This document shows, in pieces, positions 1,040 to 41,017 of a DNA stretch of 64,000 nt. The notes under the pieces are model-generated. The model was not told the origin of the DNA. It ran no database searches and saw nothing but the letters and a program-made list of their open reading frames with translations. The stretch comes from a virus: the IMG/VR virus record IMGVR_UViG_3300027741_000001; one strand, given 5' to 3'. The stretch's first letter is position 1. Each line of letters begins with the position of its first letter. The position numbers and the translations under genes are program-made.

Positions 1040-1068
1040 AAGGCCTCCTTTGTAAGATTAGATCTCTA

Positions 1069-1239
1069 TTATACCCGCTGAGCAAGCAGGGCCATCGAGA
1101 TCGAAGTTAGTCCAAATACAACGGGAAGTACTGGTGATCCAATACTTGCTACCGCAAGCACGATAGCGACTACTGCAAGCAGTACAGATATGACTGAGAC
1201 CCAAACAATATCTCTAAGTCTGATCAACCATCCTGGCAT
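1069..1239 (-). CDS. Small membrane protein (56 aa, not in ORF track)
   Basis: Manual translation MPGWLIRLRDIVWVSVISVLLAVVAIVLAVASIGSPVLPVVFGLTSISMALLAQRV; start overlaps upstream stop. Confidence 0.55.
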   Translation of the reverse strand: MPGWLIRLRDIVWVSVISVLLAVVAIVLAVASIGSPVLPVVFGLTSISMALLAQRV

Positions 1240-1517
1240 TACTTGGCCGCCTTCTTCTTTTTAGGTGCTGCAACTATTGGACCGTATGAGTCTTCTAGCT
1301 TAGGTGCAACTACTCCAAGCAGAGGCTGTACCTTCTTGCCTTTCGGCTTCTTGTTACCGCAAGCGCAGTTGCCACCGCAAGCACACTTGGGTGTCTCGAT
1401 GACTATACTTACAGTTTTGGTCTTTTTGACCTGCTTACGACAAATAAAATTGTACAGTACAGCAGATACAAAGCCTACGGCTAGTGCCAGTAGAGCTAGG
1501 GTAATATATGTTTCCAT
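1239..1517 (-). CDS. Membrane-anchored basic hypothetical protein
   Basis: ORF track 1239..1550; likelier start METYIT at 1517 after GAGGAG; N-terminal TM, CACGGNCAC, Lys-rich tail. Confidence 0.6.
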   Translation of the reverse strand: METYITLALLALAVGFVSAVLYNFICRKQVKKTKTVSIVIETPKCACGGNCACGNKKPKGKKVQPLLGVVAPKLEDSYGPIVAAPKKKKAAK

Positions 1518-1518
1518 G

Positions 1519-1665
1519 TCACTCCTCGATATCAGATATAAAGCCGGCATTATCTACCGTCCTGTTAAGAACAAGACTAACAGCGGCTAATACGAGTAGG
1601 GTGATCGAACCCACTACGGCTACAACAATAGTTGCAACAATAGCTAATGCATATATGGGATCCAT
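1519..1665 (-). CDS. Small single-TM protein (48 aa)
   Basis: Manual translation MDPIYALAIVATIVVAVVGSITLLVLAAVSLVLNRTVDNAGFISDIEE, GAAAGGA RBS. Confidence 0.5.
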   Translation of the reverse strand: MDPIYALAIVATIVVAVVGSITLLVLAAVSLVLNRTVDNAGFISDIEE

Positions 1666-1778
1666 CAATCATCCTTTCGTATGTACTAATTCTATACTGT
1701 GTTCAAAAATGTGAGAAGGCCCCCAGCATTACACTGGAGGCCTTCTTTAGAATCTAAGCAGCTTGTAGCCGTTCCACC

Positions 1779-2354
1779 TTAAATTTTCTTCTGCTTAAGA
1801 ACACGAACGAAACGGATCTGACTTCCTTTGTAGTTAGTCAGTGGTTCAACAATAGTTGTACCTGATCCATAGTTAGCATTAATGATCTTATTGCCACCAA
1901 TATAAATAGCGGCATGATAGAAATTGGAGCTACCATTGTACGCAAATACAACGATATCTCCAACGTTAGGGATAGATACTCGGCTACCAAGATGACCTTG
2001 TTTATTAGCAGAGTGTGGAAGGGTTATACCGAACTGTCTATAAGTCCAGCGAACCATTCCGGAACAGTCCCATCCCCTGGTCGTATCGCCTGAGAAGACA
2101 TATGATGTTCTTCCTACGCGGGACTTCAGGTACTTCACAAGCAGAGACATTCGTGCATAGTTTCTAACCTCTTTCGAGCTAGATGCTTTTTGCATGAAAT
2201 GCAACTGCGAGCTAGTCAACGGATTTGTCTTTACAACAAATGTTGATGTTTCTGTTGGTTTCGCTACTTGATATTTGGATGCTATAGCTGCAGAAGCTGA
2301 GCATCCGGCAATGGTTAATACCACCGCTACTAGTAATGTTGCGAACTTTCTCAT
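1779..2354 (-). CDS. Secreted NlpC/P60 (C40) cell-wall peptidase
   Basis: Signal peptide; YVFSG...WDCSGMV...PGD-like VGDIVVF...HAAIYIG catalytic Cys/His motifs. Confidence 0.9.
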   Translation of the reverse strand: MRKFATLLVAVVLTIAGCSASAAIASKYQVAKPTETSTFVVKTNPLTSSQLHFMQKASSSKEVRNYARMSLLVKYLKSRVGRTSYVFSGDTTRGWDCSGMVRWTYRQFGITLPHSANKQGHLGSRVSIPNVGDIVVFAYNGSSNFYHAAIYIGGNKIINANYGSGTTIVEPLTNYKGSQIRFVRVLKQKKI

Positions 2355-2466
2355 TGGCGACCTACCTTTCCTGATTTTTGAGGTGAGTTAGTACTCGGTC
2401 GTTATTGTTGGGTTCTCCCATAACCGTTCATCTTTAAACGGTATTTTTAGATTGTAGCACTAAATG

Positions 2467-2685
2467 CTACTCTTCGGTGACAGTTCCAGACTCGGAGGCT
2501 ATCATCAGAAGCTTTACAAAATGTGTTACATCGGGATCCATGATCTCTTTCTGATGTAAAAAGTACTCATATTGAAGATCCAGGTTCTCTTCTACGGTTA
2601 GCTCTTTAGGATCAAGAGTTCCTTTTTTATATTCCTGGTAAGCGGTATCTAGTTTTTGACTCGGTATGTTCATGTGGGGCTCCAA
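2467..2685 (-). CDS. Hypothetical protein
   Basis: ORF track, co-oriented with neighbours, downstream of GGTAAAAT -10-like box. Confidence 0.5.
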   Translation of the reverse strand: MEPHMNIPSQKLDTAYQEYKKGTLDPKELTVEENLDLQYEYFLHQKEIMDPDVTHFVKLLMIASESGTVTEE

Positions 2686-2795
2686 TCTTAGTATATTTTA
2701 CCTTACTCCAGGTAAAGGTAATCCCCCGGAGCGAACACGCACCAGGGGGATAACTCAGATTTATATAATCTACCGCATTAGACCAGGGTTAGTAC

Positions 2796-3017
2796 CTAAT
2801 CTTTCCTGGTAGAAATGATGGACCAGGCCAGGGTAATCAAAGATAAACCGGCAAATACCCAGCTGGTAACTTCCCACCTGGCGTACATAGCAAGGGTGTT
2901 GGCATTGTCATCAAATAAAATGTACTGATCTAAATAGAGCCTGGATATCTGCACTGAAAGAAGTCCAGCAATAGCTAGAAGTAAAGCAATAGAAATTCTT
3001 GTAAGAAACTTTTTCAT
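2796..3017 (-). CDS. Two-TM membrane protein
   Basis: Two hydrophobic segments; GGAAGG RBS. Confidence 0.6.
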   Translation of the reverse strand: MKKFLTRISIALLLAIAGLLSVQISRLYLDQYILFDDNANTLAMYARWEVTSWVFAGLSLITLAWSIISTRKD

Positions 3018-3209
3018 TTTGTACCTTCCGTATAAGTAGAGAAAGTTCTCTAACTAAATCTAAGCATATAATAATCTCCCAGGTCAGTCGGTATCTAAAT
3101 CCTGGTGTGTCTAGCTGTCCCTGGTTATTTATTTTAGATCCTGGCACCAGGTCGCACCTGGTAAAGATAAACCCCCGGTATCTCTACCAGGGGATTATCG
3201 GCAACCGGA

Positions 3210-3389
3210 TTACTCTAGTATTCCGGTATCCTGGTCGCTATGGTGGCAAGTCCAAGCCCAGTCGTTCCTGGTTATCTTGGTTCTGTCCCAGTGTTCGTTC
3301 TCATAACATCTACCGCAGATTTCACATTGAGTAAAAGTCTCTCCATTAGAAAGTCTTACTAGGGTTGATGTTGTCTGTAAGTAAAACAT
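3210..3389 (-). CDS. Small Zn-finger-like protein (59 aa, not in ORF track)
   Basis: Manual translation MFYLQTTSTLVRLSNGETFTQCEICGRCYENEHWDRTKITRNDWAWTCHHSDQDTGILE, downstream of cassette promoter. Confidence 0.6.
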   Translation of the reverse strand: MFYLQTTSTLVRLSNGETFTQCEICGRCYENEHWDRTKITRNDWAWTCHHSDQDTGILE

Positions 3390-3404
3390 TTTTTCTCATT
3401 TCCG

Positions 3405-3461
3405 CTAGGTGATTTTTCCTAACTAATAAAACTTTACCAGTTCCAGCTGGGAATAGTCAAG
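3405..3461 (-). promoter_or_regulatory. Early-cassette sigmaA-type promoter plus leader hairpin (representative of about 15-18 copies)
   Basis: CTTGACT-N18-TAAAGT then TAGTTAGG...CCTAG; -35 boxes (GTCAA on + strand) recur at about 3777, 4245, 4682, 5992, 6784, 7445, 8528, 9936, 10671, 11813, 13393/13403, 14809, 16787, 18524, 20586. Confidence 0.85.
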
Positions 3462-3478
3462 TATGTAGCAAATAAAAA

Positions 3479-3506
3479 TAAGCAGTTTAGACACTTGCTC
3501 AGGTGT
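3479..3506 (-). ncRNA. 28-nt H-type pseudoknot repeat, copy 1
   Basis: ACAC-CUGAGCAA-GUGU-CUAAAC-UGCUUA; P1 ACAC/GUGU, P2 UGAGCA/UGCUUA. Confidence 0.8.
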
Positions 3507-3512
3507 TTAGAA

Positions 3513-3707
3513 TTATTCGTGATCGTCATAATCAGGTTCAGGTGGCTCAAAGGTTATAGTGTTCTCGGCATCACACTCATCACAGATTACAATTTTTTCA
3601 CCATCTCCCCTAGAAACTGTTTGCTCGCTGTCCTCGTTCTCATACTCACACTTCTCACAAGTGAAAGATACTGATACTGATACTTCATCATCTCCGTATT
3701 CAAACAT
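3513..3707 (-). CDS. Small acidic Zn-ribbon protein, paralog of 6504..6716
   Basis: CEKC...CDEC; shares SVSF.C.KCE.EN with 6504..6716. Confidence 0.75.
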   Translation of the reverse strand: MFEYGDDEVSVSVSFTCEKCEYENEDSEQTVSRGDGEKIVICDECDAENTITFEPPEPDYDDHE

Positions 3708-3808
3708 TTTACATCTCCATTTTCCGTTAGGTCGTTTGCCTAACTAATCCAACTTTAGCATCTCCGTATAGAAATAGTCAAATAAATAAATAATTTTTTT
3801 GCGTGTTT

Positions 3809-3973
3809 CTATTTTCTAAATCTTTTCCTGATCCAAAAAGTTCCGTGAGTTCGGCAGAATACTTTGTGCCTACAAGGAACTAAAACTAATATTCCGTAAT
3901 CTTTTGGTTCTTGGATTAGTCCTAATGCGAACTGTTCCGCTTGTTCAGCGTCAGCTGGTTTCTCTATAAACAT
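3809..3973 (-). CDS. Small hypothetical protein (54 aa, not in ORF track) with G-run RBS
   Basis: MFIEKPADAEQAEQFALGLIQEPKDYGILVLVPCRHKVFCRTHGTFWIRKRFRK; preceded by TAGGGGGGGGTT. Confidence 0.6.
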   Translation of the reverse strand: MFIEKPADAEQAEQFALGLIQEPKDYGILVLVPCRHKVFCRTHGTFWIRKRFRK

Positions 3974-3982
3974 AACCCCCCC

Positions 3983-4189
3983 CTAATCTATCTTGGGATA
4001 GTAAGGGGTTGGGTCATAGCAACTCTCGCAATAACCAGTCTTGTCATTAGCCGTATAGCGTTCGGTATCTATCAGGGGATTAGTAGCCGTAATAAGTTCA
4101 TCACAACTAGGGCAAACTTCGTTAGTTGCTGATAGTCCAACAATTTTAGCAACCTTGTTGATGTCTAGAAAGTTTTCCATTTTTCTCAT
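3983..4189 (-). CDS. Small Zn-finger protein; C-terminus paralogous to 8669..8950
   Basis: CPSC...NPLIDTERY...GYCESCYDPTP; start at 4189 or 4180. Confidence 0.75.
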   Translation of the reverse strand: MRKMENFLDINKVAKIVGLSATNEVCPSCDELITATNPLIDTERYTANDKTGYCESCYDPTPYYPKID

Positions 4190-4331
4190 TTCTGTTCGGC
4201 AACTTGCCTAACTAATAAAACTCTATCACCGCAAGTTTTATTCCGTCAAGTATCTAAGTATTTTATTTTGGCGTGTCTAGGTAAAACTAAACCCCTGCCT
4301 GAGCTTCGGCAAGGGTTCAGTTTCACGATCT

Positions 4332-4610
4332 CTATAAGGCTCGTAAGGCTTCTACAAGGCTAGGGTATTGTCCGTATTCACTAATAGTTTCTATGCCTGT
4401 ATCGGTGACTAGCCTGATAGTAAAAACCTTAGTGTCCTGCTGGTAGTTCCATTCGCTAGTTACAAACTTTAGACCCTGTTCAGTTTCTTTCAGGCTTGAC
4501 CAAAAAATAGTTGATTTGAAAAACTCCAGTGTTGATTTAGAAAACCACTCTTTATTATCGGCAACAATTTTTTGCCAAACTGGACTTGACTTGGTGACTT
4601 GTAGTTTCAT
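4332..4610 (-). CDS. Hypothetical phage protein
   Basis: Own promoter, RBS and terminator; WFSKSTLEFFKS motif. Confidence 0.75.
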   Translation of the reverse strand: MKLQVTKSSPVWQKIVADNKEWFSKSTLEFFKSTIFWSSLKETEQGLKFVTSEWNYQQDTKVFTIRLVTDTGIETISEYGQYPSLVEALRAL

Positions 4611-4755
4611 TTTTCTACTTTCTTTATTTTGATTAGGCGATTACCTAACTACTAAAATCCTAGATCACTTATCGGCATTTAGTCAAGATTATTCTGGCGT
4701 GTCCAAAAATAAAAAACCCCTAGCCTTTCGGCTAAGGGCTTTCTACTCTCGGGGC

Positions 4756-5034
4756 TTAGTCCTGCTTAGTCAAGTCCAGAACTAACTCGGCAGACATATC
4801 GCCAGTCCAAACTATCTCAATGTCATCGTGACTGTCTATGTAATCTTGGTCAGGGTATCCAGTAAAATCGTGTCCAATAATCTCGTTATCTTCTCTAACC
4901 TGATCCATAGCATCATCTTCATCTTCGGCAAAAACAGTTCCCATTAGTTCAATGTTCCTGAGTTCGCAATCTCTGTCATAGCCGAAAGGGTAAATTTCAA
5001 TCCACCAATAAACTCGATATTCTTTCTTTTCCAT
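4756..5034 (-). CDS. Acidic hypothetical protein
   Basis: Own promoter/leader hairpin and terminator (about 4711-4742). Confidence 0.75.
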   Translation of the reverse strand: MEKKEYRVYWWIEIYPFGYDRDCELRNIELMGTVFAEDEDDAMDQVREDNEIIGHDFTGYPDQDYIDSHDDIEIVWTGDMSAELVLDLTKQD

Positions 5035-5145
5035 TTTTTACTCCGTAACTGCTAGGCACTTCACCTAACTACTTCAACTTTATCAGTCCCGAATGGAAAT
5101 AAGCAAGCGTGTCGGTATTTATTTTTTGGATCTCTAGAAATCTCT

Positions 5146-5304
5146 CTAAGACTTCTTTACCCTGACCATACGCTTTAGTCTTAGGTTCAGCTCAAAGGGA
5201 ATTAGACCGGCAAGCATAGCCCTATAAAGTAAGTCATAGGTTCTAAACCTGTCTAGTCTGTCCAGCTCGGCAACTCGTTCTGGCGTGAATTTAGTTCTTC
5301 TCAT
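5146..5304 (-). CDS. Small basic hypothetical protein
   Basis: 3' part of ORF 5146..5400; likely start MRRTKF after AAAGGAGG. Confidence 0.55.
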   Translation of the reverse strand: MRRTKFTPERVAELDRLDRFRTYDLLYRAMLAGLIPFELNLRLKRMVRVKKS

Positions 5305-5384
5305 TTTGCCTCCTTTGTAGTTAGTCATTACATAAATAATAACTTCTAATCGGCATAAAAAATTCCCGATCTCTAAAAAATAAA

Positions 5385-5412
5385 TGAACCTTTTAGACAC
5401 TTGTTCAGGTGT
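5385..5412 (-). ncRNA. 28-nt pseudoknot repeat, copy 2
   Basis: ACAC-CUGAACAA-GUGU-CUAAAA-GGUUCA; compensatory change in P2 (UGAAC/GUUCA). Confidence 0.8.
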
Positions 5413-5451
5413 GTTCGGCAGAGGGGAAATGAAAGAAACCCTCTCCCAAGT

Positions 5452-5643
5452 CTATTTACGCCTATTACGCTTTCTAATAAATCTAGGAAGCTCGGCAACT
5501 GCTAGTAGCAACGCTACAAACAATAGCAGAAATGCCAAAGTAAATCCAATCTCAAATGCTCGCTGATTATTGTCGGCTATAAATCCATAATAGATACCGC
5601 AACCAGCAGACCATAAACCTAATACTGCCAAAAATGTTTTCAC
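5452..5643 (-). CDS. Two-TM small membrane protein
   Basis: Hydrophobic segments and Arg/Lys tail. Confidence 0.65.
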   Translation of the reverse strand: MKTFLAVLGLWSAGCGIYYGFIADNNQRAFEIGFTLAFLLLFVALLLAVAELPRFIRKRNRRK

Positions 5644-5675
5644 AACTTCACCGCAACTTTCTATTAGTTTTTAGT

Positions 5676-5703
5676 TGAGCCTTTTTAGAACTTGCTCAGG
5701 TTC
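5676..5703 (-). ncRNA. 28-nt pseudoknot repeat, copy 3
   Basis: GAAC-CUGAGCAA-GUUC-UAAAAA-GGCUCA; compensatory change in P1 (GAAC/GUUC). Confidence 0.8.
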
Positions 5704-5708
5704 GGCAC

Positions 5709-5936
5709 TTACTTTACTTTCTCGCCAATTGCGATCAGTAATTCAGTTGGAGAAACTTCCAGCTCACGACATAGCACCGCCAAAGTATTTGACGGAATGT
5801 GTCGTTGATTATGAAAGTATCGGCTAAGGCTAGACTTCTGTAAGCCTGTTGCGATAGCGAATTGGTTTAGAGATTTGTATCCCTGTTGCTCGTAGCGAGC
5901 AATAAACCAAGTCCAAGTATCAACTTTTTTTCCCAT
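5709..5936 (-). CDS. XRE/Cro-family HTH transcriptional regulator
   Basis: SLNQFAIATGLQKSSLSRYF...LCRELEVSPTELL HTH pattern. Confidence 0.85.
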   Translation of the reverse strand: MGKKVDTWTWFIARYEQQGYKSLNQFAIATGLQKSSLSRYFHNQRHIPSNTLAVLCRELEVSPTELLIAIGEKVK

Positions 5937-6328
5937 TTTTTCACCTCTTTTCGTCTTGATGTATTCAGTTTAGTTGCTGTTTGGAAACTTTGTCAAGTTT
6001 ATCCGCATTTTATTTTTTGGCGTTTCTACGATCTCTTGACTTGGTATCAAGCTTGTTCGCATACCAACTAAGTCGGTGTCCTGTATTCATTAGCACTCCG
6101 CTAATACTTCTAAGACTTCTAGCAATTTTATTTAGCATTATCTAATCTCTCTTTATCGGTGTTCCCCTGTAATACAGCATAGCGTTCTGCTCGCCACTCT
6201 TTACACTCTCGGCACTCTTGTTTATGTGTGTTCTCACCAATGTATTTTACTTCCGTAAGCTTGCCACAAGACCAGCAGGCGATCTTAGATTTTCTATCTT
6301 TCACTTTTGCCTTTCCAAAGATTTAGGT

Positions 6329-6356
6329 TGAGCCTTTTAGACACTTGCTCGGGTGT
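6329..6356 (-). ncRNA. 28-nt pseudoknot repeat, copy 4
   Basis: ACAC-CCGAGCAA-GUGU-CUAAAA-GGCUCA; lies between two small Cys-rich ORFs. Confidence 0.75.
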
Positions 6357-6503
6357 TGTTGCTAGTTAGTGCTGTTCACATCCACAGCAGTTATCGCAAG
6401 CGATAGGGTTGCTGTTTGCGCAAACACAGAATATATCCAGTTCTGTTTCGCATTTAGGGCAAAGTGCTATCTGTCCTGTTGTAGTTCTGATAAACTCGTC
6501 CAT

Positions 6504-6716
6504 TTAGTCATCACCAAAACTAACGCTGTTGTTCTCGCCACACTCGGCACACTCAACATCAACATCTCCCGACCTGCCACCAACTACAACTTCTACGCTG
6601 TCGTTCTCAACTTCACACTTGCCACACTCAAAGCTGACGCTAATCTCTCGTTCATTATCCCAAGGGGTAGCAGTTCTCCAACCATCATAACCGCCACCAA
6701 TGTCGTATCCACTCAT
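6504..6716 (-). CDS. Small acidic Zn-ribbon protein, paralog of 3513..3707
   Basis: CGKC...CAEC; promoter spacer ATCTCCGTATAGAAATAGTCAA identical to that of 3513..3707. Confidence 0.75.
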   Translation of the reverse strand: MSGYDIGGGYDGWRTATPWDNEREISVSFECGKCEVENDSVEVVVGGRSGDVDVECAECGENNSVSFGDD

Positions 6717-6896
6717 TTTTATCTCCGTATCTGTTAGGCGATTTACCTAACTACTCCAAGATTACTATCTCCGTATAGAAATAGTCAAGTATTTAGATTA
6801 TTTATTTTTCGGTGTGTCGCAAGTTTCACCAGATCGTCTTTTTTCGGGCAAAGCTAAACCCCCTAACCATTTAGGCTAAGGGGTTCGGCTTACTTC

Positions 6897-7370
6897 CTAG
6901 ATACTCATAACTCCGTATGTTCCAATAACTAGGGATAGAACAATGGCGTAAGGTCCTAGTGGAACGCTAGTTCCAGCCTTAGCCTTACGAATAACCACCC
7001 GATAGAGCGTTGCGACAATGCCAGCAATAAGGCTTACAGCAACCAATACCACCGGCAACCACCAGACAAACCAGCCGATTACTAGGGAACTACCAAAGAA
7101 TAACTTGATGTCCCCCATACCTAATAAGTCATAGTAGTTAGCAAACATACCAGCAATACCGATACCAAACGCAACTGCCAAAGCTAATCCTAATCTCCAC
7201 CACTCTCCACCAGCGAAACTAGCAACTAAGTCGGCAACCAAACTCATAACGATAAATGGCAGGATAATCTTGTTCGGTAGTCGGTGTTCTCTAATGTCTA
7301 TGACGATTAGGGGAATAGCAACGATAGCCAGATAAACCAATGGCATTACAGCGATAAGTGTTGTGTTCAT
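6897..7370 (-). CDS. Prepilin peptidase, A24 family (TadV/CpaA-like, no methylase domain)
   Basis: Multi-TM; IDIREHRLPN (first Asp), GMGDIKL (second Asp), VPLGPY C-terminal motif. Confidence 0.88.
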   Translation of the reverse strand: MNTTLIAVMPLVYLAIVAIPLIVIDIREHRLPNKIILPFIVMSLVADLVASFAGGEWWRLGLALAVAFGIGIAGMFANYYDLLGMGDIKLFFGSSLVIGWFVWWLPVVLVAVSLIAGIVATLYRVVIRKAKAGTSVPLGPYAIVLSLVIGTYGVMSI

Positions 7371-7456
7371 TTGAGTTCCTTACTCTCATTTAGGTTAGGC
7401 GATTACCTAACTACTCTCAACTTTACTAAACCTGTTCGGGAATAGTCAAGTTATTT

Positions 7457-7741
7457 TTAGGCGTGTTTTACTAAATAAACAATGGCAATGTATTCATCAG
7501 CATAGGTCGCAACATTATCGGTAAATGTCCAGTTGCGAGCTTTATCTATGTCTAACCACGAAAGTTTGCCGGTGCTATCTTTTAGGGCAACGCTGTTAGT
7601 TTGTAGTTTCCCTATCGTTCTGACCTGATCTAGAAACTTATGAGGTTTTTCCTCACCTGTCTTTATGTCTAGGTATTTGATAATCGTTAGGGTTGTATCA
7701 GGCTTGGCTAATACTCTTTTGAACTCGGCAAGTGTTTTCAT
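7457..7741 (-). CDS. Hypothetical protein
   Basis: AAGGAG RBS; ORF track. Confidence 0.7.
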   Translation of the reverse strand: MKTLAEFKRVLAKPDTTLTIIKYLDIKTGEEKPHKFLDQVRTIGKLQTNSVALKDSTGKLSWLDIDKARNWTFTDNVATYADEYIAIVYLVKHA

Positions 7742-7783
7742 TAGTTCTCCTTTTTTAGTTGTGTTCTAACTTTACCAGCTTGG

Positions 7784-8032
7784 CTAGTCTAAGCCAAACT
7801 CTTTTCTAAACTTAACAATGTCTAATCTAGTTTCGGTAATCATCTCACCTAGTTCATTAGACTTTATTGTCGCCTGTTCTAGCTGTGATAATAGCCTGTC
7901 TAGAAACGCTAAGTCTTTATTCGGTGTTGTCTTTACCTGCTCGGTAATACCTTCCAATAGAGATAATAACCCTGCTCGTCTAGATTTTAGATCTAGTAAT
8001 CTCTGTTGTAGTTGTTCTAGTTGCTCGTTCAT
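7784..8032 (-). CDS. Coiled-coil hypothetical protein
   Basis: Heptad Leu pattern; RBS. Confidence 0.65.
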   Translation of the reverse strand: MNEQLEQLQQRLLDLKSRRAGLLSLLEGITEQVKTTPNKDLAFLDRLLSQLEQATIKSNELGEMITETRLDIVKFRKEFGLD

Positions 8033-8099
8033 TTTTATTTTCCCTTGTTAGTGATAAAGGTGATAACCCTTTTGGATTACCACCTTTATCGGTGTAGTT

Positions 8100-8456
8100 C
8101 TAACTTACCTTATCGGCATACGCTAACGCAAACTGCTCGGCAGTATAAGTTTCTCCGTCATACTGAACTGAACCTGTATCGGCATTTACAACAACGACAG
8201 GATTATCGTCAAAGGTGTCGCTAGGCTCTGCCTTTATTGCTCTAATGCCGAAACTCAACTCTCCGTTGTAGTTTCCTAACTTTGCGTATTCATAGAATAG
8301 CTGTGCTGTTAGATAAGACGGGTCGCCTATTCTGCCCGTTCTGTCCAATACATTACCAACTGCCTTAGCGTTGTCTGTGCCTGACCAATGCCCATAAAGT
8401 TCTATGGCTGTATCAAACTGCTCGCTTGTGATGTGGATAGTTGCTCTATCGCCCAT
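8100..8456 (-). CDS. Hypothetical phage protein (MGDRA...LYGHWSG type)
   Basis: Own promoter (8528) and AAGGAG RBS. Confidence 0.75.
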   Translation of the reverse strand: MGDRATIHITSEQFDTAIELYGHWSGTDNAKAVGNVLDRTGRIGDPSYLTAQLFYEYAKLGNYNGELSFGIRAIKAEPSDTFDDNPVVVVNADTGSVQYDGETYTAEQFALAYADKVS

Positions 8457-8565
8457 TTTTGTTTCTCCTTTTTCGGTGGTTTATTTTTTTTGGTGCTAAC
8501 TAATCTAACCACAACTACCTAAGATTAGTCAAGCTTATTTTCCGGTATGTTCCCTAAATAAAAAA

Positions 8566-8593
8566 TAAGCCTTTTATACACTTGCTTAGGTGT
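8566..8593 (-). ncRNA. 28-nt pseudoknot repeat, copy 5
   Basis: ACAC-CUAAGCAA-GUGU-AUAAAA-GGCUUA; compensatory change in P2 (UAAGC/GCUUA). Confidence 0.8.
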
Positions 8594-8594
8594 G

Positions 8595-8660
8595 GAGCAA
8601 GGGAGAAATGAGAGAAACCCTTGCTCGTTGGCAGTAGTGTTAGGGGGGACTAACTGCCAA
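8595..8660 (-). ncRNA. Tandem hairpins with anti-RBS loops (candidate antisense RNA)
   Basis: Stems GAGCAAGGG/CCCUUGCUC and UUGGCAGU/ACUGCCAA; loops UUUCUCUCAUUUCU and GUCCCCCCUAAC complementary to initiation regions at 4180-4193 and 3977-3986. Confidence 0.6.
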
Positions 8661-8668
8661 GCTTGTTT

Positions 8669-8950
8669 TTAGTCTGGTGTCGGGTCATAGCAATTATCGC
8701 AATAACCGATTTTGTCGCTTACAGCATAGCGTTCAGCGTCAATGAGTGGATTATTCTCGTCTATCTGTGCCTTACACAACGGACATCTCTCAACAACTTC
8801 ATTATTGTTGATAAGCATTTCTAGATCGTGTAAAGCTTGTTCGGCACTAATCTCCTTGGAGTAGTAGTCGTTGTAAATAGCCTTTACTGCTTTCTGCTCA
8901 ACTTCGTTCATTTCCATTTTCTGCTCCTTGTTTTTCGGTGGTAGTTCCAC
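8669..8950 (-). CDS. Hypothetical protein with C-terminal Zn finger paralogous to 3983..4189
   Basis: CPLC...NPLIDAERY...GYCDNCYDPTP; likely start MEMNEV after AAGGAG. Confidence 0.75.
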   Translation of the reverse strand: MELPPKNKEQKMEMNEVEQKAVKAIYNDYYSKEISAEQALHDLEMLINNNEVVERCPLCKAQIDENNPLIDAERYAVSDKIGYCDNCYDPTPD

Positions 8951-8951
8951 T

Positions 8952-9260
8952 TTACTCGGCTTGATTACTTTTTGTCAAGTTTTCTTTTAGATTAGAAATC
9001 TTGTCTGCTGTCCAAGGGCTATGATTACACTCGCAATGTGGTTTTACCCACTCCCTAGCAATACCGGCAGGGTCGTTGAAACAAGTATCATCTATGTCAT
9101 CTTGGAAACAACGGAGCATAAAGTCGGTGGTCTTTCCACACACTCCACAGCAATACTCAATAACTTCAAGCTTGTGTCCTATGTGGTTGCTTAGGTAGTC
9201 ATTGAAATAGAAACTTTTTGGATCACTAAAATCGCCTTTCGGCTTTCCCTGTTCGGTCAT
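8952..9260 (-). CDS. Cys/His-rich hypothetical protein
   Basis: 3' part of ORF 8952..9338; likely start MTEQGK overlapping upstream stop (ATGA). Confidence 0.6.
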   Translation of the reverse strand: MTEQGKPKGDFSDPKSFYFNDYLSNHIGHKLEVIEYCCGVCGKTTDFMLRCFQDDIDDTCFNDPAGIAREWVKPHCECNHSPWTADKISNLKENLTKSNQAE

Positions 9261-9439
9261 TTTTTCTTTGCTTTCTTGATAGTTAGTTTTACTTCTACGC
9301 TGTAAAAGCGTTCTACAACTTCCCTTGCTGTTTCCCAATAGCCTAAGTCTATGGCGGTTTCTCGGTGAGTTCTAACTAACTCGTCTGCTAGGCGTTCTAG
9401 TAGTTCATCATTGGTTAGGTGTTTTACATACTTGGTCAT
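9257..9439 (-). CDS. Hypothetical protein
   Basis: ORF track with promoter and leader. Confidence 0.65.
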   Translation of the reverse strand: MTKYVKHLTNDELLERLADELVRTHRETAIDLGYWETAREVVERFYSVEVKLTIKKAKKK

Positions 9440-9552
9440 TTTTCTACTTTCATTTTCGGTGGTATCTCTACCTTACCACTTTTCTCGGTAAAAAGTAAAT
9501 CCCCTAATCCAAACTCTCGGTTCGGTTTATTAGGGGATCGCTTTTTTAGTTC

Positions 9553-9855
9553 TTAGACAAGCTTTATGTATTCGTATTCGGTTGTTCTTAGGCACTCGTC
9601 AAACGCAACAGGGAACTTCTCTTTCATCAAGGCACGATCAAAACTTGTGTTCTTTCCTGCCTGTAAAACATACGAACCCTGTCCAGCAACAACTCCACGC
9701 TTGGCACCATTTAGAGCCTGTGCCAAGATTTCGGTAGCCTGTGCCTTTTGTGTTTCTAGTTCTGCCATTTGGAGCTTGATAGTTTTTAGCAGGGCATAAG
9801 CTTCTTTTGCTTTTTTGCTTGTGATTTTTACTTCTTGTGGTTCTTGATTTTCCAT
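9553..9855 (-). CDS. Hypothetical phage protein (coiled coil plus beta domain)
   Basis: Own promoter (9936), AAGGAAG RBS, terminator-like hairpin 9499-9538. Confidence 0.7.
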   Translation of the reverse strand: MENQEPQEVKITSKKAKEAYALLKTIKLQMAELETQKAQATEILAQALNGAKRGVVAGQGSYVLQAGKNTSFDRALMKEKFPVAFDECLRTTEYEYIKLV

Positions 9856-9969
9856 TTATTTACTTCCTTAGTTCTGTGCCGATTTCGGCTATTGGAACTT
9901 CCAATACTTCTAACTTAGTCTTTTCTCTAATCTAAGTCAAGTTTATTTTCATTTATTTTTTCGGTGTGT

Positions 9970-10239
9970 CTAACTATTTTCTAAATAGCTTTGATACTGC
10001 TCTGTTCTTTCTATTACCCTGATCAGTTTTTTATTGTTGGTTAGGGTAGCAAAATCCATTAGACACTCGGCTCGGTTGTAATACTTTTTTGTTTTTATCC
10101 AAGCTCCGTTTAGTGTTCGGTAAGTCAGGCTTGCTCTAATCTCTGCTCCATACTCGGCAGAATAAGTAAGCTCTAACTTTGTCTTAGCGTTCTCTATTTT
10201 CCAGATCGCTATTCTTGATAGTTCGTAATCAACTTTCAC
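9970..10239 (-). CDS. Hypothetical protein
   Basis: Coupled to upstream gene (GTGA overlap). Confidence 0.6.
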   Translation of the reverse strand: MKVDYELSRIAIWKIENAKTKLELTYSAEYGAEIRASLTYRTLNGAWIKTKKYYNRAECLMDFATLTNNKKLIRVIERTEQYQSYLENS

Positions 10240-10619
10240 TTGGTTTCCCCTTTTTTCATCTCGGCTTTTTCTAGTCTAGTAGCCGATACTAAAACCTGAA
10301 TTTTGTTTCCGTCTGCCAAGCTTAGTCCTAAGCAGTTTCCGTTAGTATCAGTTCCACCTGTAAGGATTACATTACCAACGATTATGTCCGTAGCTCCAAA
10401 ATAATAATTCCAAATAGCAGTTGCTCTGTGGTTGTAAGGTAGTCCGTCTAGTTTGCCTTCCTCGTTTGTCCACATAGTCATAGTTGGCGATAATCTAACG
10501 ATCTCTAAATAACCGCCAACGACTTCCTTGATAACTTCGTATTCGGTTTCGGCAGTAAAGCTCACAACTTCTAGTTCCCCTGCTGTCTTGATAATTAGGG
10601 CTTGCTTTTGATTTTCCAT
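10236..10619 (-). CDS. DUF3846-like protein
   Basis: VVGGYLEIV...NEEGKLDGLPYNHRAT...IVGNVILTG motif set. Confidence 0.8.
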   Translation of the reverse strand: MENQKQALIIKTAGELEVVSFTAETEYEVIKEVVGGYLEIVRLSPTMTMWTNEEGKLDGLPYNHRATAIWNYYFGATDIIVGNVILTGGTDTNGNCLGLSLADGNKIQVLVSATRLEKAEMKKGETK

Positions 10620-10733
10620 TTTTTTCCTTTTTGTCGGGATAGTTCCATTGTTCCAAATAGGTATCGGTAAGTCAAGTATTTCGGCAAAAAAAAATTCGCC
10701 AAGTTTTTAGCCTGACGAATTCTTTTCGGTTGC

Positions 10734-11141
10734 CTAATCTCTGGTCAAATCCTCAATAGTGTCGGCTGGTGGCTCTGTGTGGCTACTAGGTTTCGCTGTT
10801 CTGCTGAAAGTGCTGTTGCCATAGGTCAAGTCGTGTCCAATTGTTTCTGCTTCTATCTCAACGCTTGTTCCTGCTCGTTCGCCATTGTCCCAATCACGAA
10901 CACGCAACTTACCTGAAACGATTACACGATCGCCTTTGCTAACACTTGTAGCAACATTTACCGCTAATGTTCTAAACGCAGTAATGGTGAACCAATTTGT
11001 GTCGCTATCAACCCAACGATTTTGTGTTCTATCCCAACGCCTGATACTACTTGCTAGACGGAAACTTGTAATCTCTAATCCGTCTTGCGTTACTATGTGG
11101 CGTGGTGTTGTTGCTACTAGCCCTGTTGTTATGTATTCCAT
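10734..11141 (-). CDS. ssb: Single-stranded DNA-binding protein (actinobacterial type)
   Basis: ITSFRLAS..RRWD...WVD..TNWFTITAFRTLA.NVA.S..KGDRVIVSGKLRVRDW...SVEIEAETIGHDL OB fold. Confidence 0.92.
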   Translation of the reverse strand: MEYITTGLVATTPRHIVTQDGLEITSFRLASSIRRWDRTQNRWVDSDTNWFTITAFRTLAVNVATSVSKGDRVIVSGKLRVRDWDNGERAGTSVEIEAETIGHDLTYGNSTFSRTAKPSSHTEPPADTIEDLTRD

Positions 11142-11172
11142 TTTATTCCTTTGTTATCGGTGGTTTTTTTGG

Positions 11173-11200
11173 TAAGCAGTTTAGATACTTGCTTAGGTAT
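11173..11200 (-). ncRNA. 28-nt pseudoknot repeat, copy 6
   Basis: AUAC-CUAAGCAA-GUAU-CUAAAC-UGCUUA; compensatory changes in P1 and P2. Confidence 0.8.
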
Positions 11201-11237
11201 TTAGGCGTTTGCCTATGGTCTTAGTTTAGTGGTTTCA

Positions 11238-11756
11238 CTAACAAATCTCAAATCCACCACTATCGGTTAGAAACTCGGCAAACTCTTTTATGTCATCAAG
11301 CTCCAAATCGTAGTTAGTTTCCCAACTATCTTTCTTGCCCTCGCCATTACAACCATTACACCAACCCTTTTCTCTACCTAAGAGAATAGCCAAATCCGGT
11401 GCTAATTCACGATCAGACATTTTGTTCTCAACGCCAACCTTGTCGGTTCTAATACCTGTGCCTTGACACCACTCGCAATTTTCTCTTGGCAAAAGTGATA
11501 AGTGTATGTTTCTTGCTTTTACATAAGTGCTTGCTGTTCCGTCAGACAAATCTTTTACAAGCAAGCGAGCAAGCTCCACGCTGTCGTTAGCGTCAAGTCC
11601 ATCACCATCGTTAGTGTGTCCGTTCTTTACCTTGCCAGCAAGGTCTGTGTGTCGGTCTAGGCAGTAGTCCCATAGTGGTCGCCAGCCCCATACATTTCTA
11701 CGGAAGTAAGTTCCCTTTTCGCTTTTTGGATTTTTTCCATAAACATCCATACCCAT
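11238..11756 (-). CDS. Hypothetical phage protein with DnaJ-type Zn motifs
   Basis: YFRRNVWGWRPLW; CEWCQGTG and CNGCNGEG; C-terminal FL..SGGFEIC. Confidence 0.75.
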   Translation of the reverse strand: MGMDVYGKNPKSEKGTYFRRNVWGWRPLWDYCLDRHTDLAGKVKNGHTNDGDGLDANDSVELARLLVKDLSDGTASTYVKARNIHLSLLPRENCEWCQGTGIRTDKVGVENKMSDRELAPDLAILLGREKGWCNGCNGEGKKDSWETNYDLELDDIKEFAEFLTDSGGFEIC

Positions 11757-11813
11757 TTTTGATTTCCTTTCAGTCGGGTTATGTTTCCAAATTACCAGCT
11801 AATCAGATACAAG

Positions 11814-11957
11814 TCAAGTTTCTTTACAAAACTTTTCGTGGATTTTCCAAAACAAGTTATCAACTCCACGCCACCACCAGAAGTAATACCACCGATTAGC
11901 GTGAGCATACATTTTACAAACTAGGGGTCTGCCCTTACAGATTTCGCAGTTGATCAC
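11814..11957 (-). CDS. Small Trp/Cys-rich protein (47 aa, not in ORF track)
   Basis: GTG start overlapping upstream stop; MINCEICKGRPLVCKMYAHANRWYYFWWWRGVDNLFWKIHEKFCKET. Confidence 0.5.
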   Translation of the reverse strand: MINCEICKGRPLVCKMYAHANRWYYFWWWRGVDNLFWKIHEKFCKET

Positions 11958-12253
11958 TTATCAAGCTTTATCTTGTAGTGGTTCGGCACTAGGTCATTTA
12001 GGTCAAACATAAACTCTAAGCTGTCGTATTGGTCTAGGTTCTCGTCAAGCCACTCCTCAAAATCCGGTGTGTATTTGATGTTGGTGATTAGCCAATAGCC
12101 CTCGTCAATTTCCATTTGACACCATTGTTCAGTTCCTCGCCACTCAAACCAAATCTGTCTGCCAGCGTTTTCTAGCCAAGCTCCCTCAACTTTTGTAATG
12201 ACTACATCAGGGATAAAGTTGTTGTCCTCGTTGGCGTATAGATCGTATTTCAT
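11954..12253 (-). CDS. Acidic hypothetical protein
   Basis: AAAGGAAAT RBS. Confidence 0.7.
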   Translation of the reverse strand: MKYDLYANEDNNFIPDVVITKVEGAWLENAGRQIWFEWRGTEQWCQMEIDEGYWLITNIKYTPDFEEWLDENLDQYDSLEFMFDLNDLVPNHYKIKLDK

Positions 12254-12278
12254 AGATTTCCTTTTCTAAGAAGTTAGG

Positions 12279-12306
12279 TGAGCAGTTTATCAACTTACTC
12301 AGGTTT
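12279..12306 (-). ncRNA. 28-nt pseudoknot repeat, copy 7
   Basis: AAAC-CUGAGUAA-GUUG-AUAAAC-UGCUCA. Confidence 0.7.
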
Positions 12307-12604
12307 AGCATTTTTTTCTTTTAGGGAGAGAGAATAAAATACAAAAAAAGAAAACCGGATAGTTATTACCATCAACTCCAATAGGGCTACAATTTTTAGG
12401 TCTGGAAGTCAAGACCCTTAGTTTTTTCTCTTGCTAAGGAACAAGCGTAGTTTAGCGACATACATTGGTCGGATTTCACTAGGTTTTCAGGGTAGTAATC
12501 CCCATACCACCAACACTTGTTCCTGAACGGACACCTCTGGTTCTCCACCTAAAACTAAGACTTCTAGGTTTAGGTTTCGGTATGCCTAGCAAAAGTTTAT
12601 TTAG

Positions 12605-13030
12605 TTATTCCTCATAAGGATTATAGTCCTGTTCGGGCGATAACTCAAATCTAAAACTAGCTCCGTATTCATCGTGGCTTGATCGGGTAATTACCATTTC
12701 CTTTTCAGGCGTAATCTCAACCCTTAGCGTGTAATCGCCATTTATGGCAAGAGCTTTTAGTAAGTCCTTAGCAGGAACTTCTGTCCAACCACTCGTGTTG
12801 TCCCAATTCATTTTCTCGCCAACAACTCTGATGATCGTGTCCTCGTCCCAACCCTTACTGTTCAGGTATGGCATTAGAAACTCGTCTGTGAAGTATTGCT
12901 TATCGTCCTCAAAACAACCGAAACACTCGTCACTCCAAGTCATTTCGCCTGTTGTTTCGTCCTCAACCTCGCAAGAGCAAGTGTTAGACATTTTCATTTC
13001 TGTTGCCTGTGGTTCAGTTTCTTTATCCAT
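12605..13030 (-). CDS. Acidic hypothetical phage protein
   Basis: GAAAGGAAAT RBS; CSC...CFGC, SHD motif. Confidence 0.75.
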   Translation of the reverse strand: MDKETEPQATEMKMSNTCSCEVEDETTGEMTWSDECFGCFEDDKQYFTDEFLMPYLNSKGWDEDTIIRVVGEKMNWDNTSGWTEVPAKDLLKALAINGDYTLRVEITPEKEMVITRSSHDEYGASFRFELSPEQDYNPYEE

Positions 13031-13061
13031 TTTGATTTCCTTTCAGTTGGATAAGTTCAGT

Positions 13062-13346
13062 TTATAGACTTACAAGCTGTTCGTCAAGTTCTATCGGCAA
13101 GTAGTTTGGAACTCCACCACACATAACCATACCGATTTTGATTACCAGATCACTAGGCTCAATAGCCAAACATTGAGCAACCTCTATCAGCATTTCACTA
13201 CTGACTTCTTTGCGAGCTTTTTCTATTTCCCATAGGTAAGTAAGCGAGATACGCCCTGATCCTCTATTTACTGTTTGGCGTAGCGTGAGCTGTTTGTCTT
13301 GCCGGTATTCAGCGATTATGTGTCCTAGTGCTTGTCTAAATAGCAT
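13062..13346 (-). CDS. ClgR-like XRE-family regulator
   Basis: LFRQALGHII..YR....LTLRQ...ISLTYLWEIEKARKEVSSEML closely follows the actinobacterial ClgR pattern. Confidence 0.75.
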   Translation of the reverse strand: MLFRQALGHIIAEYRQDKQLTLRQTVNRGSGRISLTYLWEIEKARKEVSSEMLIEVAQCLAIEPSDLVIKIGMVMCGGVPNYLPIELDEQLVSL

Positions 13347-13416
13347 TTCATTTTCCTATTCGTTTAGTGGTTTATTCAGCCTATACCCCTGTGTCAAGTT
13401 TTGTCAAGTTTTAGAG

Positions 13417-13527
13417 AGGGACTAGGTAAGAAAAAGAACCACCAAAAATTTACCTAGTCCCTGAACGGATAGTTAGAGAGGCATAGCGTCTATCCGTTAT
13501 CGGTGAGAGAAAGCATAAACTCACCGA
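13417..13527 (-). ncRNA. Array of three long-loop hairpins in a 3' UTR
   Basis: Perfect stems AGGGACTAGGTAA/TTACCTAGTCCCT, AACGGATAG/CTATCCGTT, TCGGTGAG/CTCACCGA with 12-20 nt loops. Confidence 0.6.
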
Positions 13528-13535
13528 AGTTTGTT

Positions 13536-14423
13536 TTATTCTAGCGTAGGAACTTCACTATTCAGGGTCGGGTATTGTCTAACTCCCTGATCGTCAAGAA
13601 CCCAAGCTGTCGTTTCATCAAGAACTTCCATTTGCTCGTCAGGGTCGTTCCCCTGTTCCATAGCAAGCTCGTAAGCGTTCTCTGCTGTGTTAGTTCTTAC
13701 TCGGTAAGACTTCTGAATAACAACAATGAACTCTTGTTCATCTCTCGGACAGTCCTTATACCACTCGTCCTCGTCGCTGTCGTTGGCACACCTACAACTG
13801 TCCTCTTGGTCGCTATCGACATAGTCCTTGTGGCTTTGTGGTATGTCCCACTCTTTGTCGATACCATAACTTCCACCTGATCCTGAAAACTCTGCTCCCC
13901 AGCCTTGTTCCTCGGTTGAGTGTAAGTGGAAATGTAGTTCGGGGTGTTGCTGAACCATAGCCCTAAATACAGGTTCAGGGATAGACCAAGCAGTAGAAAA
14001 AGTGTAGCTCAAACTTCTAGTGAGATCGTCTATCTCGTCAAGTTCGGGTGAAACACACTCATCACTAGCGTCCCACTTAGTTCCCCAGTTGCTACTGTTC
14101 CAGCTATACCAGTCATCAGAAGTTTCCTTACTCTCGCCAGTAAAACCTACTCCCTCAACAAAACCAGTAGTTCCGAAATAATCGCCCAGGCTATCTGTCG
14201 GTGGTGCTATGAAGTTCCAAAAAGACATAGGACTTTCATCTGACATTACAGTCAAAATCTTTCGGTCTTTGTCCTCTACCTTAGTAGTAGTTTTGTCCTC
14301 GTTGCGTATCCAGCTTTCAGATAGCCAGCGAGTTTCGTGTTGTTGGCTTGCCTTAGTAGCAAACTTTTTCAGTTCAGCAGGTTCGCCTGAAACAGTTAGA
14401 GAGTTATAGACCCAGTTAGGCAT
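13536..14423 (-). CDS. DUF1281/Api92-like ferredoxin-fold protein
   Basis: MPNWVYNSL, WYSWNSSNWGTKWD, FSTAWSIP motifs. Confidence 0.8.
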   Translation of the reverse strand: MPNWVYNSLTVSGEPAELKKFATKASQQHETRWLSESWIRNEDKTTTKVEDKDRKILTVMSDESPMSFWNFIAPPTDSLGDYFGTTGFVEGVGFTGESKETSDDWYSWNSSNWGTKWDASDECVSPELDEIDDLTRSLSYTFSTAWSIPEPVFRAMVQQHPELHFHLHSTEEQGWGAEFSGSGGSYGIDKEWDIPQSHKDYVDSDQEDSCRCANDSDEDEWYKDCPRDEQEFIVVIQKSYRVRTNTAENAYELAMEQGNDPDEQMEVLDETTAWVLDDQGVRQYPTLNSEVPTLE

Positions 14424-14749
14424 TACTTACCCCATTTCTTTCTCTTACTAGCAGGGTGTCGCATTTGAGAAATCATTTTTGTAATGACTTCGTGGTGTTC
14501 CATTTCGCAAGTGATAACTATGTCGTTTAGTTCCTGATCACCTAACTTTTCAGCTAGAAGTTTCATAGGCTCAAATGCTCTGTAAATAGCAGGGTTAGGC
14601 ATTTCAGCCTGAACTAATGCTGATGAAATCGCACAAAAAATTTGGATAGCAGTCGCAGCTACATCTTGTGGTTCGTTGATTTCATTTTGGATAACAGACA
14701 ATAAGCTCTCGTCCTCGTTATTGTGATCGTGTGTCGGGTTATCGCACAT
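14423..14749 (-). CDS. Hypothetical protein
   Basis: Own promoter (14809), GAAAGGA RBS. Confidence 0.7.
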   Translation of the reverse strand: MCDNPTHDHNNEDESLLSVIQNEINEPQDVAATAIQIFCAISSALVQAEMPNPAIYRAFEPMKLLAEKLGDQELNDIVITCEMEHHEVITKMISQMRHPASKRKKWGK

Positions 14750-40959: not shown

Positions 40960-41017
40960 TTGGAGATTCCGTTGCCTAGGACGGGTAGACCGCTTTACGC
41001 TCCTTTGTCTACAAGCG

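Follow-up and report, generated by a model that had tools for sequence, protein, structure and literature searches.

What is the 28-nucleotide (nt) element that recurs between the early genes of the virus recorded in IMG/VR as IMGVR_UViG_3300027741_000001, and what could it do there? The stretch analysed, here called the window, is 64,000 nt of a large tailed freshwater actinophage. Seven copies of the element occur in it, all on the minus strand, which is the coding strand for every gene in the region: copy 1 at 3479..3506, copy 2 at 5385..5412, copy 3 at 5676..5703, copy 4 at 6329..6356, copy 5 at 8566..8593, copy 6 at 11173..11200 and copy 7 at 12279..12306, spaced 290-2600 nt apart. Comparison of sequences establishes the fold of the element, the strand on which it forms, its family and its positional rules. 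Each copy is an H-type RNA pseudoknot (knot), and by the same comparison the seven belong to a very widespread, sequence-conserved and uncatalogued phage and prophage RNA family.

The layout of the knot is S1a(4) - C - S2a(5) - AA - S1b(4) - L3(7) - S2b(5), that is, a first stem (S1) of 4 base pairs (bp), a single C as loop L1, a second stem (S2) of 5-6 bp and an AA junction; copy 1, for example, reads ACAC C UGAGC AA GUGU CUAAACU GCUUA. S1 varies in the window as ACAC/GUGU, GAAC/GUUC (copy 3) and AUAC/GUAU (copy 6), and S2 as UGAGC/GCUCA, UGAAC/GUUCA (copy 2) and UAAGC/GCUUA (copy 5). All of these variants, along with the seven positions and their strand, had been given correctly in an earlier reading of the letters alone (the sequence-only reading), which proposed a sense-strand RNA pseudoknot under structural selection. 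The alignment bears the proposal out: 96.8% of the cells of the seven copies pair and four pairs are changed on both sides, whereas sliding the 3' partners by 1-3 columns leaves 7-45% pairing and no double changes. Window copies also include G-U stem variants, a C.A mismatch at the outer S2 pair of copy 4 and, in copy 7, an A.G at the outer S1 pair and a U.G in S2. A covariance model, built as the sequence-only reading had suggested, gives copies 1 to 7 scores of 41.9, 43.0, 37.6, 42.9, 43.7, 41.1 and 38.1 bits (E 4e-9 to 1.6e-7), and the next match in the whole window, with filters off, reaches 12 bits. A possible eighth, degenerate copy lies at 12444-12471 (minus strand) and reads CGAC C AAUGU AU GUCG CUAAACU ACGCU.

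Outside the window, related loci were gathered from IMG/VR by way of the gene for the single-strand-binding protein (SSB). In 43 of them the covariance model finds 79 further copies, 47 of them distinct, and both stems covary across these distinct copies. S1 variants in the related loci include ACAC/GUGU, CAAC/GUUG, CGAC/GUCG, AGAC/GUCU, CUAC/GUAG and UAAC/GUUA, and S2 variants include UGAGC/GCUCA, UAAGC/GCUUA, UAGGC/GCCUA, UGAAC/GUUCA, UAGGG/CCCUA and a 6-bp form, UGAGCC/GGCUCA. Among 149 distinct 28-mers from all sources, an alignment that was pre-filtered for pairing and most of whose distant copies came from patterns fixing unpaired bases, all five S2 pairs and the two outer S1 pairs covary; pair 2-15, for example, is GC in 84, CG in 37, AU in 20 and UA in 6. 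Because of that filtering and of those fixed bases, the clade set from the covariance model gives the fairer picture of variation. All but one of the 79 copies in related loci are on the strand of the SSB gene, and among copies with one non-Watson-Crick pair G.U outnumbers A.C by 28 to 15 (18 to 4 at pair 10-24 alone). This excess, together with the orientation along transcription, argues that it is the sense RNA that folds. That the pseudoknot is a real structured RNA under structural selection is strongly supported by these comparisons.

Each helix alone is marginal in free energy (+0.3 to -4.2 kcal/mol), so that the fold must be cooperative, needing both helices and tertiary contacts. C5 (L1), A11-A12 (junction) and A19-A21 (L3) are the unpaired bases that stay fixed, and the inner S1 pairs A3-U14 and C4-G13 are fixed as well. 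By analogy with luteovirus-type knots, these bases and pairs would form triplex contacts, with the A-rich L3 probably occupying the minor groove of S1. The sequence-only reading had held L3 fixed at UAAA; A19-A21 are indeed invariant, but the motif as a whole is not, since L3 of copy 3 is UAAAAAG. L3 carries AAAAG in four of the seven window copies and AAACU in the rest. Positions 22-23 are CU or AG, with no other dinucleotide in any copy. AG is almost confined to this actinophage clade, about a quarter of whose copies have AAAAG; where CU is present, a U23-A11 pair can lengthen S2, and a competing nested hairpin (G13-C22, U14-A21) is also possible.

How far the family extends was judged from several searches. 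A loose pattern with 14 fixed bases, ACCTN4AAGTN4AAACTN4A, has at least 122 matches in IMG/VR; among the 122 listed, full or nearly full pairing is seen in 78, where chance would give about 4, and these copies occupy dozens of unrelated viral contigs. A 36-nt BLAST query matches, at 90-96% identity, Clostridium tetani phage phiCT19406B, Roseophage SIO1, Lentibacter phages ICBM1-3, Celeribacter phage P12053L and roseophages CRP-6 and CRP-13, and more weakly (83-87%) Anoxybacillus phage A403 and Microcystis phage Ma-LMM01. Run on SIO1, phiCT19406B, ICBM1 and Ma-LMM01, the covariance model finds a single copy in each genome. An exact 22-base pattern occurs in 44 bacterial-genome stretches from more than 12 phyla, in prophage-like or mobile-element DNA; the upstream genes that can be named there are mobile-element genes (ArdA, phage minor capsid protein), and exact-sequence copies are present in the beta-/gammaproteobacterial contigs of Fluviibacter and Beggiatoa. 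In phages, the near-unchanged 28-nt sequence recurs across at least 5 bacterial phyla. A complete relative of the window phage also has exactly seven copies, which are confined to the interval 9.6-18.7 kb from the left end of its genome. One of the 44 bacterial stretches is a large CRISPR array with a 30-nt repeat, GTCTCAATTCCACTATGGTTCAATTCAAAT, at 1-8000 of locus L205 (CP054675, Ca. Tepidiaquacella proteinivora); four of its spacers carry the pseudoknot sequence, and hosts thus do become immune to this conserved phage element.

The sequence-only reading recognised no named family in the element, and the searches agree with it. Rfam 15 returns no match at gathering score, at E up to 10, or with a 66-nt slice and lax filters, and preQ1-I and other small pseudoknot riboswitches are rejected on the same search. 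Hammerhead (CUGANGA...GAAA), hepatitis delta virus-like and pistol architectures were likewise discarded, by eye and by Rfam, for lack of their cores or extra helices. No published description of the pseudoknot was found in the literature consulted, which did not extend to the tables of Fremin et al. 2023 (PMC10690425); the 8,495 unnamed candidate RNAs from IMG/VR in that study may include the family.

The position of the knot relative to genes is as regular as its fold. In three independently gathered sets (the actinophage clade, a diverse IMG/VR set and a bacterial set) the distance from stop codon to knot has its mode at 5-6 nt and a floor of 4 nt, with the exception of one copy in the diverse set that begins 1 nt past the stop. 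Fifty-nine of 157 copies lie 4-8 nt past a stop, where uniform placement in the gap predicts 15.6. Since duplex RNA can survive from about +11 onwards, counted from the ribosomal P site, 4 nt after the A-site codon is the nearest point that a terminating ribosome need not unwind.

Downstream, no such rule is apparent. In the clade, the next start codon is 18-34 nt beyond the knot in 25 of 58 copies, and in the rest it is at least 56 nt away, with promoter or terminator sequence intervening. A U-run follows about 20% of all copies, and copies with a U-run rarely have a close start codon (0/9, 3/15 and 2/10 in the three larger sets). In three loci a transfer RNA (tRNA) gene begins 7-11 nt downstream: tRNA-Asp at L058:13861-13973 and at L159:772-883, and tRNA-Leu at L073:394-514. 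The 8 nt 3' of the knot hold 2-6% G in all sets, and a hairpin starting 0-3 nt past the knot is not enriched (57/185, against 53/185 with shuffled flanks and 66/183 at a control offset). What follows the knot is thus free, be it a ribosome-binding site, a promoter, a U-run or a tRNA. Between close relatives, similarity often ends at the knot, e.g. between L007 and L012 (11848/11843; 14688/14418) and between L020:18013 and L032:15799. As these ends fall exactly at knots, the knots mark the joints of exchangeable gene cassettes.

Anchoring at the minimal ribosome-compatible distance, indifference to what lies downstream and a G-poor flank together favour, tentatively, a gene-end cap or roadblock that would work without a protein, protecting and insulating the upstream cistron. 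An exonuclease roadblock was one of several alternatives offered by the sequence-only reading, and it is to this class of explanation that we are led. The seven elements would be transcribed within phage early mRNAs, each folding into a compact 28-nt knot as near to the stop as a terminating ribosome permits, and so would remain folded while the upstream gene is translated. Exonucleolytic decay from 3' to 5' would be halted by the knot at the end of the cistron, and perhaps other translocating machines would be halted too, while the G-poor, unstructured RNA on its 3' side would serve as a site of cleavage, of termination or of binding for the next ribosome. The outcome would be stable, separately behaving cistrons within long or processed early transcripts, and gene cassettes made portable by the knot. 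A protein-independent role is favoured by the presence of one copy each in small phages with no evident partner gene in common; one copy per genome in unrelated cultured phages, together with the mobile-element DNA of more than 12 phyla, makes a dedicated partner improbable. In eukaryotic virus systems, similarly built small pseudoknots bring Xrn1 and ribosomes to a stall (PMC6546385, PMC10520033, PMC10321173). Nuclease resistance, protein independence and the direction of protection are properties that we infer for the knot.

Several points weigh against such a cap. For roughly one copy in four the nearest stop is more than 30 nt away, and no open reading frame (ORF) is present in the roughly 90 nt upstream of copy 7. 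At 28 nt and rich in A/U, the knot may lack the strength to stop PNPase or RNase R. The spacing of 5-6 nt would also be expected of a ribosome-directed element, and the invariance of the unpaired bases outside the actinophage clade is partly by construction, as the search patterns fixed those bases.

Spacing is also where a possible, if doubtful, alternative begins: a knot at the mRNA entry channel of the ribosome that holds the stop codon could modulate termination, or block sliding and re-initiation after it and so uncouple neighbouring cistrons, or else tune the upstream protein by stalling and trans-translation in the manner of repetitive extragenic palindromic (REP) elements. The peak at 5-6 nt in all three sets falls in the spacing range of frameshift and read-through stimulators, as would suit a recoding signal. 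REP elements within 15 nt of a stop codon reportedly cause stalling and trans-translation, as Liang, Rudd and Deutscher are said to have found in 2015. The phage has its own transfer-messenger RNA (tmRNA; 41015-41318), a start codon lies 18-34 nt beyond the knot where a gene follows directly, and ribosomes are stalled by knots of coremin type: scanning ribosomes halt at coremin and at its Watson-Crick variants, which also induce -1 frameshifting (PMC10520033, PMC10321173). The hard floor of 4 nt, however, looks more like a knot keeping clear of the ribosome than one engaging it, neither a slippery heptamer nor a conserved extension frame is found upstream of the knot, the quarter of copies distant from any stop would go unexplained, and three copies precede tRNA genes. 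A roadblock of the opposite polarity, in which a bacterial counterpart of the coremin exonuclease-resistant RNA (xrRNA) would halt RNase J from the 5' side and protect the downstream cistron, is unlikely. Actinobacteria possess RNase J, as do the lineages of the cultured hosts (Clostridium, Anoxybacillus, Rhodobacteraceae, Microcystis, Actinobacteria), and the knot shares with coremin an S1 of 4 bp with C-G as its closing pair, an L1 of one pyrimidine, a loop-final AA and, in most copies, a spacer (Y)UAAACU. Yet the second hairpin (hp2) that coremin needs for Xrn1 resistance is not enriched (the 57/185 against 53/185 shuffled given above), the anchor is the upstream stop and not the downstream start, and RNase P would in any case cut away the copies that immediately precede tRNA genes. 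Beta-/gammaproteobacterial lineages such as Fluviibacter and Beggiatoa are generally without RNase J, and the exact copies in these two weaken the correlation between carriers and RNase J hosts.

Pausing of RNA polymerase by a knot in its RNA exit channel, or termination where a U-run follows, is quite unlikely as the function of the family. U-runs stand directly after copies 1, 2 and 5 of the window, with promoter-like sites beyond copies 1 and 5, and the fifth or so of all copies that have a U-run seldom have a close start codon. About 80% of copies, though, have no U-run, and the 25 of 58 clade copies that precede a ribosome-binding site and start within 34 nt are necessarily on one transcript with them. 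At L058 a knot and U-run stand 11 nt before a tRNA gene, leaving no room for a promoter, and a U-run beside a promoter can be the A/T-rich upstream element of that promoter. Invariant unpaired bases could contact a protein, and a binding site or decoy for a phage RNA-binding regulator, for a host defence nuclease of ToxN/AbiQ type or for the phage SSB, as in the T4 gene 32 operator, would make use of them; copy 6, which precedes the SSB gene by 31 nt across an A-rich unstructured spacer, recalls that operator. Such a role is nevertheless very unlikely: there is no tandem repeat array and no toxin-like neighbour, one of seven copies is at the SSB gene, relatives L004, L013 and L027 have the knot 3' of that gene, and an identical sequence in phages of different phyla that share almost no genes argues against a system-specific partner. 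Least probable, and scarcely to be expected, is an element that acts as DNA, either as a recombination linker where cassettes meet or as the target of a DNA-binding protein. It could draw on the ends of similarity at the knot (L007 against L012, L020 against L032) and on the unusual conservation of sequence across unrelated phages; against it, compensatory changes in both stems preserve pairing and not sequence, G.U exceeds A.C, orientation tracks transcription (one antisense copy in 79), and mosaic joints are a possible by-product of shared sequence.

Three further candidates were rejected outright. An intrinsic (Rho-independent) terminator is discarded on the share of copies with a U-run, on a terminator scan that flags none of the seven window copies and on the many copies that sit inside operons. 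A tRNA-like RNase P substrate, with A28 as discriminator followed by CCA, fails in that CCA, CCC or CCU after the knot is common solely in the actinophage clade. Read-through to a second stop is dismissed because the UGA (6-8) and UAA (18-20) of the knot share a frame that matches the upstream stop only at spacers of 4, 7 and 10 nt and not at the modal 5-6.

Within the window, the surroundings of the copies can be grouped by what lies downstream. Copies 3, 4, 6 and 7 are followed by a ribosome-binding site. Copy 3 is 5 nt past the stop of the helix-turn-helix (HTH) gene 5709-5936, and the start of gene 5452-5643 is about 32 nt beyond it. Copy 4 is 9 nt past the stop of gene 6366-6503, with the GTG start of gene 6128-6304 24 nt beyond. 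Copy 6 is 37 nt past the stop of gene 11238-11756, with a small hairpin (11202-11215) between, and the SSB gene whose start it precedes is 10734-11141. Copy 7, with the start of gene 11954-12253 25 nt beyond, is located where about 300 nt of conserved non-coding sequence have their 3' end. Copies 1, 2 and 5 are followed by a U-run. Copy 1 is 6 nt past the stop of gene 3513-3707, and a sigma70-like promoter (3460-3431) comes after its U-run; copy 2 has a hairpin (5420-5444) on its 5' side and the next start codon about 80 nt downstream; copy 5 has hairpins 8595-8627 and 8630-8658 on its 5' side and a TTGACT promoter-like site on its 3' side. Small hairpins separate stop from knot at copies 2, 5 and 6. 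After other early genes, GC-rich hairpins fill the type of gap that the knots occupy, from stop codon to next promoter or ribosome-binding site.

Two of these hairpins have features of their own. The one 5' of copy 2 (5420..5444, minus strand) has the loop UUUCUUUCAUUU, which is kept with other stems in relatives, and the one 5' of copy 5 (8595..8627, minus strand) has the loop UUUCUCUCAUUUCUC. Both hairpins carry the loop UUUCUYUCAUUUC, whose complement, GAAAUGAGARAAA-AUG, occurs where early genes start (at 3389 and 4189). In relatives the stem changes and the loop is retained, with L026 counterparts near 13070-13104 and 17470-17508. The sequence-only reading had considered the knots as a protein handle for adjacent antisense hairpins; this would concern at most two of the seven copies (5385 and 8566) and cannot explain the family. 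The non-coding stretch next to copy 7 (12307-12615, minus strand) lies between that copy and a promoter-like site, TTGAGT-17-TATAAT (12648-12620), and contains the degenerate knot-like copy at 12444-12471. Its conservation is high both in L001 and in L026, the more distant of the two, and its indels do not come in multiples of three. It has no Rfam match and is probably a non-coding RNA or a long leader.

The window phage carries genes for a class II ribonucleotide reductase, a family A DNA polymerase, an SNF2 helicase and SSB. Its DNA polymerase is 78% identical to that of 'Actinomycetia phage DSL-LC01', which is metagenome-assembled (PMC10611076), and the IMG/VR record behind L001, the complete relative mentioned above, is a genome of 135 kb with direct terminal repeats, nearly collinear with the window. 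Megablast of 3000-13000 gave no match among cultured phages. The minus strand carries genes from base 1 to about 26,000, and 3,000-12,700 is a string of small early-type genes, many with their own TTGACT-N17/18-TAnnnT promoter. Many early genes also have a common leader, consisting of the promoter, a box UUAGUUAGG, a short variable hairpin and a GGAAAUGAGAAAAAUG-type ribosome-binding and start sequence, with examples on the minus strand at 3395-3430, 3722-3750, 4195-4225, 4630-4660, 6730-6760 and 7385-7415; this leader is a second repeated cis-element of the early region. The tmRNA, on the minus strand, encodes the tag AERTSAFALAA and is adjoined by a tRNA-Met at 41486-41560 (minus strand).

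That one fold is kept almost to the base at the ends of genes, whether the phage is one of Actinobacteria, Firmicutes, Alphaproteobacteria, Cyanobacteria, candidate-phyla bacteria or others, points to a basic interaction with universal machinery, i.e. ribosome, exonucleases or polymerase, or to a mechanically special fold. New here are the stop-anchored spacing with its floor, the independence from downstream context and the G-poor 3' flank. If the knot is a roadblock or insulator, it would explain how genes within long early transcripts are individually stable and expressed, would offer synthetic biology a portable insulator of 28 nt and would link phage RNA biology to the xrRNAs of eukaryotic viruses. 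The culturable carriers Roseophage SIO1, the Lentibacter phages and Ma-LMM01 make the question directly testable.

Among known systems, the small antitoxin RNAs of type III toxin-antitoxin loci (ToxI, antiQ, CptI, TenpI) were those to which the sequence-only reading turned, with the idea of an antitoxin or decoy. They too are small pseudoknotted RNAs with an A-rich single strand; however, they form about 2-5.5 tandem units of 34-45 nt directly upstream of a toxin gene, with a sequence specific to each system, whereas the phage knots are dispersed singletons with no toxin gene nearby and a sequence common across phyla. Tandem Repeats Finder reports no array of period 25-50 nt in 1-16000, and Pfam finds no toxin family in the ten flanking ORFs, the part of the window scanned for ToxN; a Cro/C1-type HTH alone passes the cut-off, the remaining matches are weak ones to Zn-ribbons, and the gene after copy 6 is that for SSB. 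The antitoxin idea fails on these counts, and a decoy for one host's system-specific antitoxin is made unlikely by the same 28-nt sequence across at least 5 phyla. The T4 gene 32 operator resembles copy 6 alone, being an H-type knot with an unstructured A-rich leader upstream of a single-strand-binding protein gene; it differs in that six of the seven copies are at other genes, that knots of relatives may follow the SSB gene and that the sequences are not alike. An autoregulatory operator of this type is rejected, given an SSB leader site in one copy of seven.

REP and bacterial interspersed mosaic elements (BIME), intercistronic stabiliser hairpins and the RNase III sites of T7 early mRNA are, like the knot, multi-copy, fixed in orientation and placed just after stops inside operons. 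As a group these elements are known as 3' stabilisers and as boundaries between cistrons. They are plain imperfect hairpins of one lineage, in contrast to a pseudoknot of the same sequence in many phyla. The -1 frameshift knots of luteovirus type, such as that of beet western yellows virus (28 nt), are alike in size and topology, in an L1 of 1-2 bases containing C, in an A-rich L3 suited to a minor-groove triplex and in placement 5-8 nt downstream of the A-site codon. Unlike them, the phage knot stands after a stop codon in non-coding RNA, with no slippery heptamer and no extension frame, and its S2 is longer and its S1 shorter. As a -1 frameshift stimulator it is rejected, since it follows the stop codon and 65 upstream flanks hold no recurrent slippery heptamer.

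A further likeness is to coremin (xrRNA-C) and its Watson-Crick variant xrRNA-WCC, which occur in plant, fungal and picorna-like RNA viruses (Dilweg et al. 2019 PMC6546385; 2023 PMC10520033, PMC10321173). These too are tiny H-type knots with a 4-bp S1, a loop-closing C-G, a single-pyrimidine L1, a loop ending in A-A/D and a spacer (Y)UAAACU, near-constant in sequence across very different viruses and sited after stop codons and in intergenic regions. Set beside coremin hp1, defined as 3-4 bp with a YGAD/YGNNAD loop (PMC6546385, PMC10520033), the phage S1 agrees in its 4 bp, its C-G closing pair and the first C and final AA of its loop, and departs from it in a loop of 8 nt (C-UGAGC-AA) whose second base is U and not G. 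The loop holds a 5-nt Watson-Crick strand of S2 (UGAGC) where coremin has G or GNN. For the coremin spacer UUAAACUAC, L3 is NUAAACU in most phage copies, agreeing at 6 of the first 7 bases, with AAAAG in place of AAACU in the four window copies and the quarter of the clade noted above. The obligatory hp2, a hairpin of at least 4 bp that must come straight after the spacer if Xrn1 is to be resisted, is absent from the phage knots, whose flank is G-poor, and phage hosts have no Xrn1. The coremin-like fold is best taken as a resemblance and not as membership, and it may work in a similar way. A bolder reading, which we regard as doubtful, is that phages of most bacterial phyla share a protein-independent 28-nt triplex 'punctuation mark', structurally akin to coremin xrRNA, that mechanically stops exonucleases and/or ribosomes at gene ends and so defines mRNA units; it would represent the first class of exonuclease-resistant RNA known from bacterial viruses, and a fold common to phages and plant viruses.

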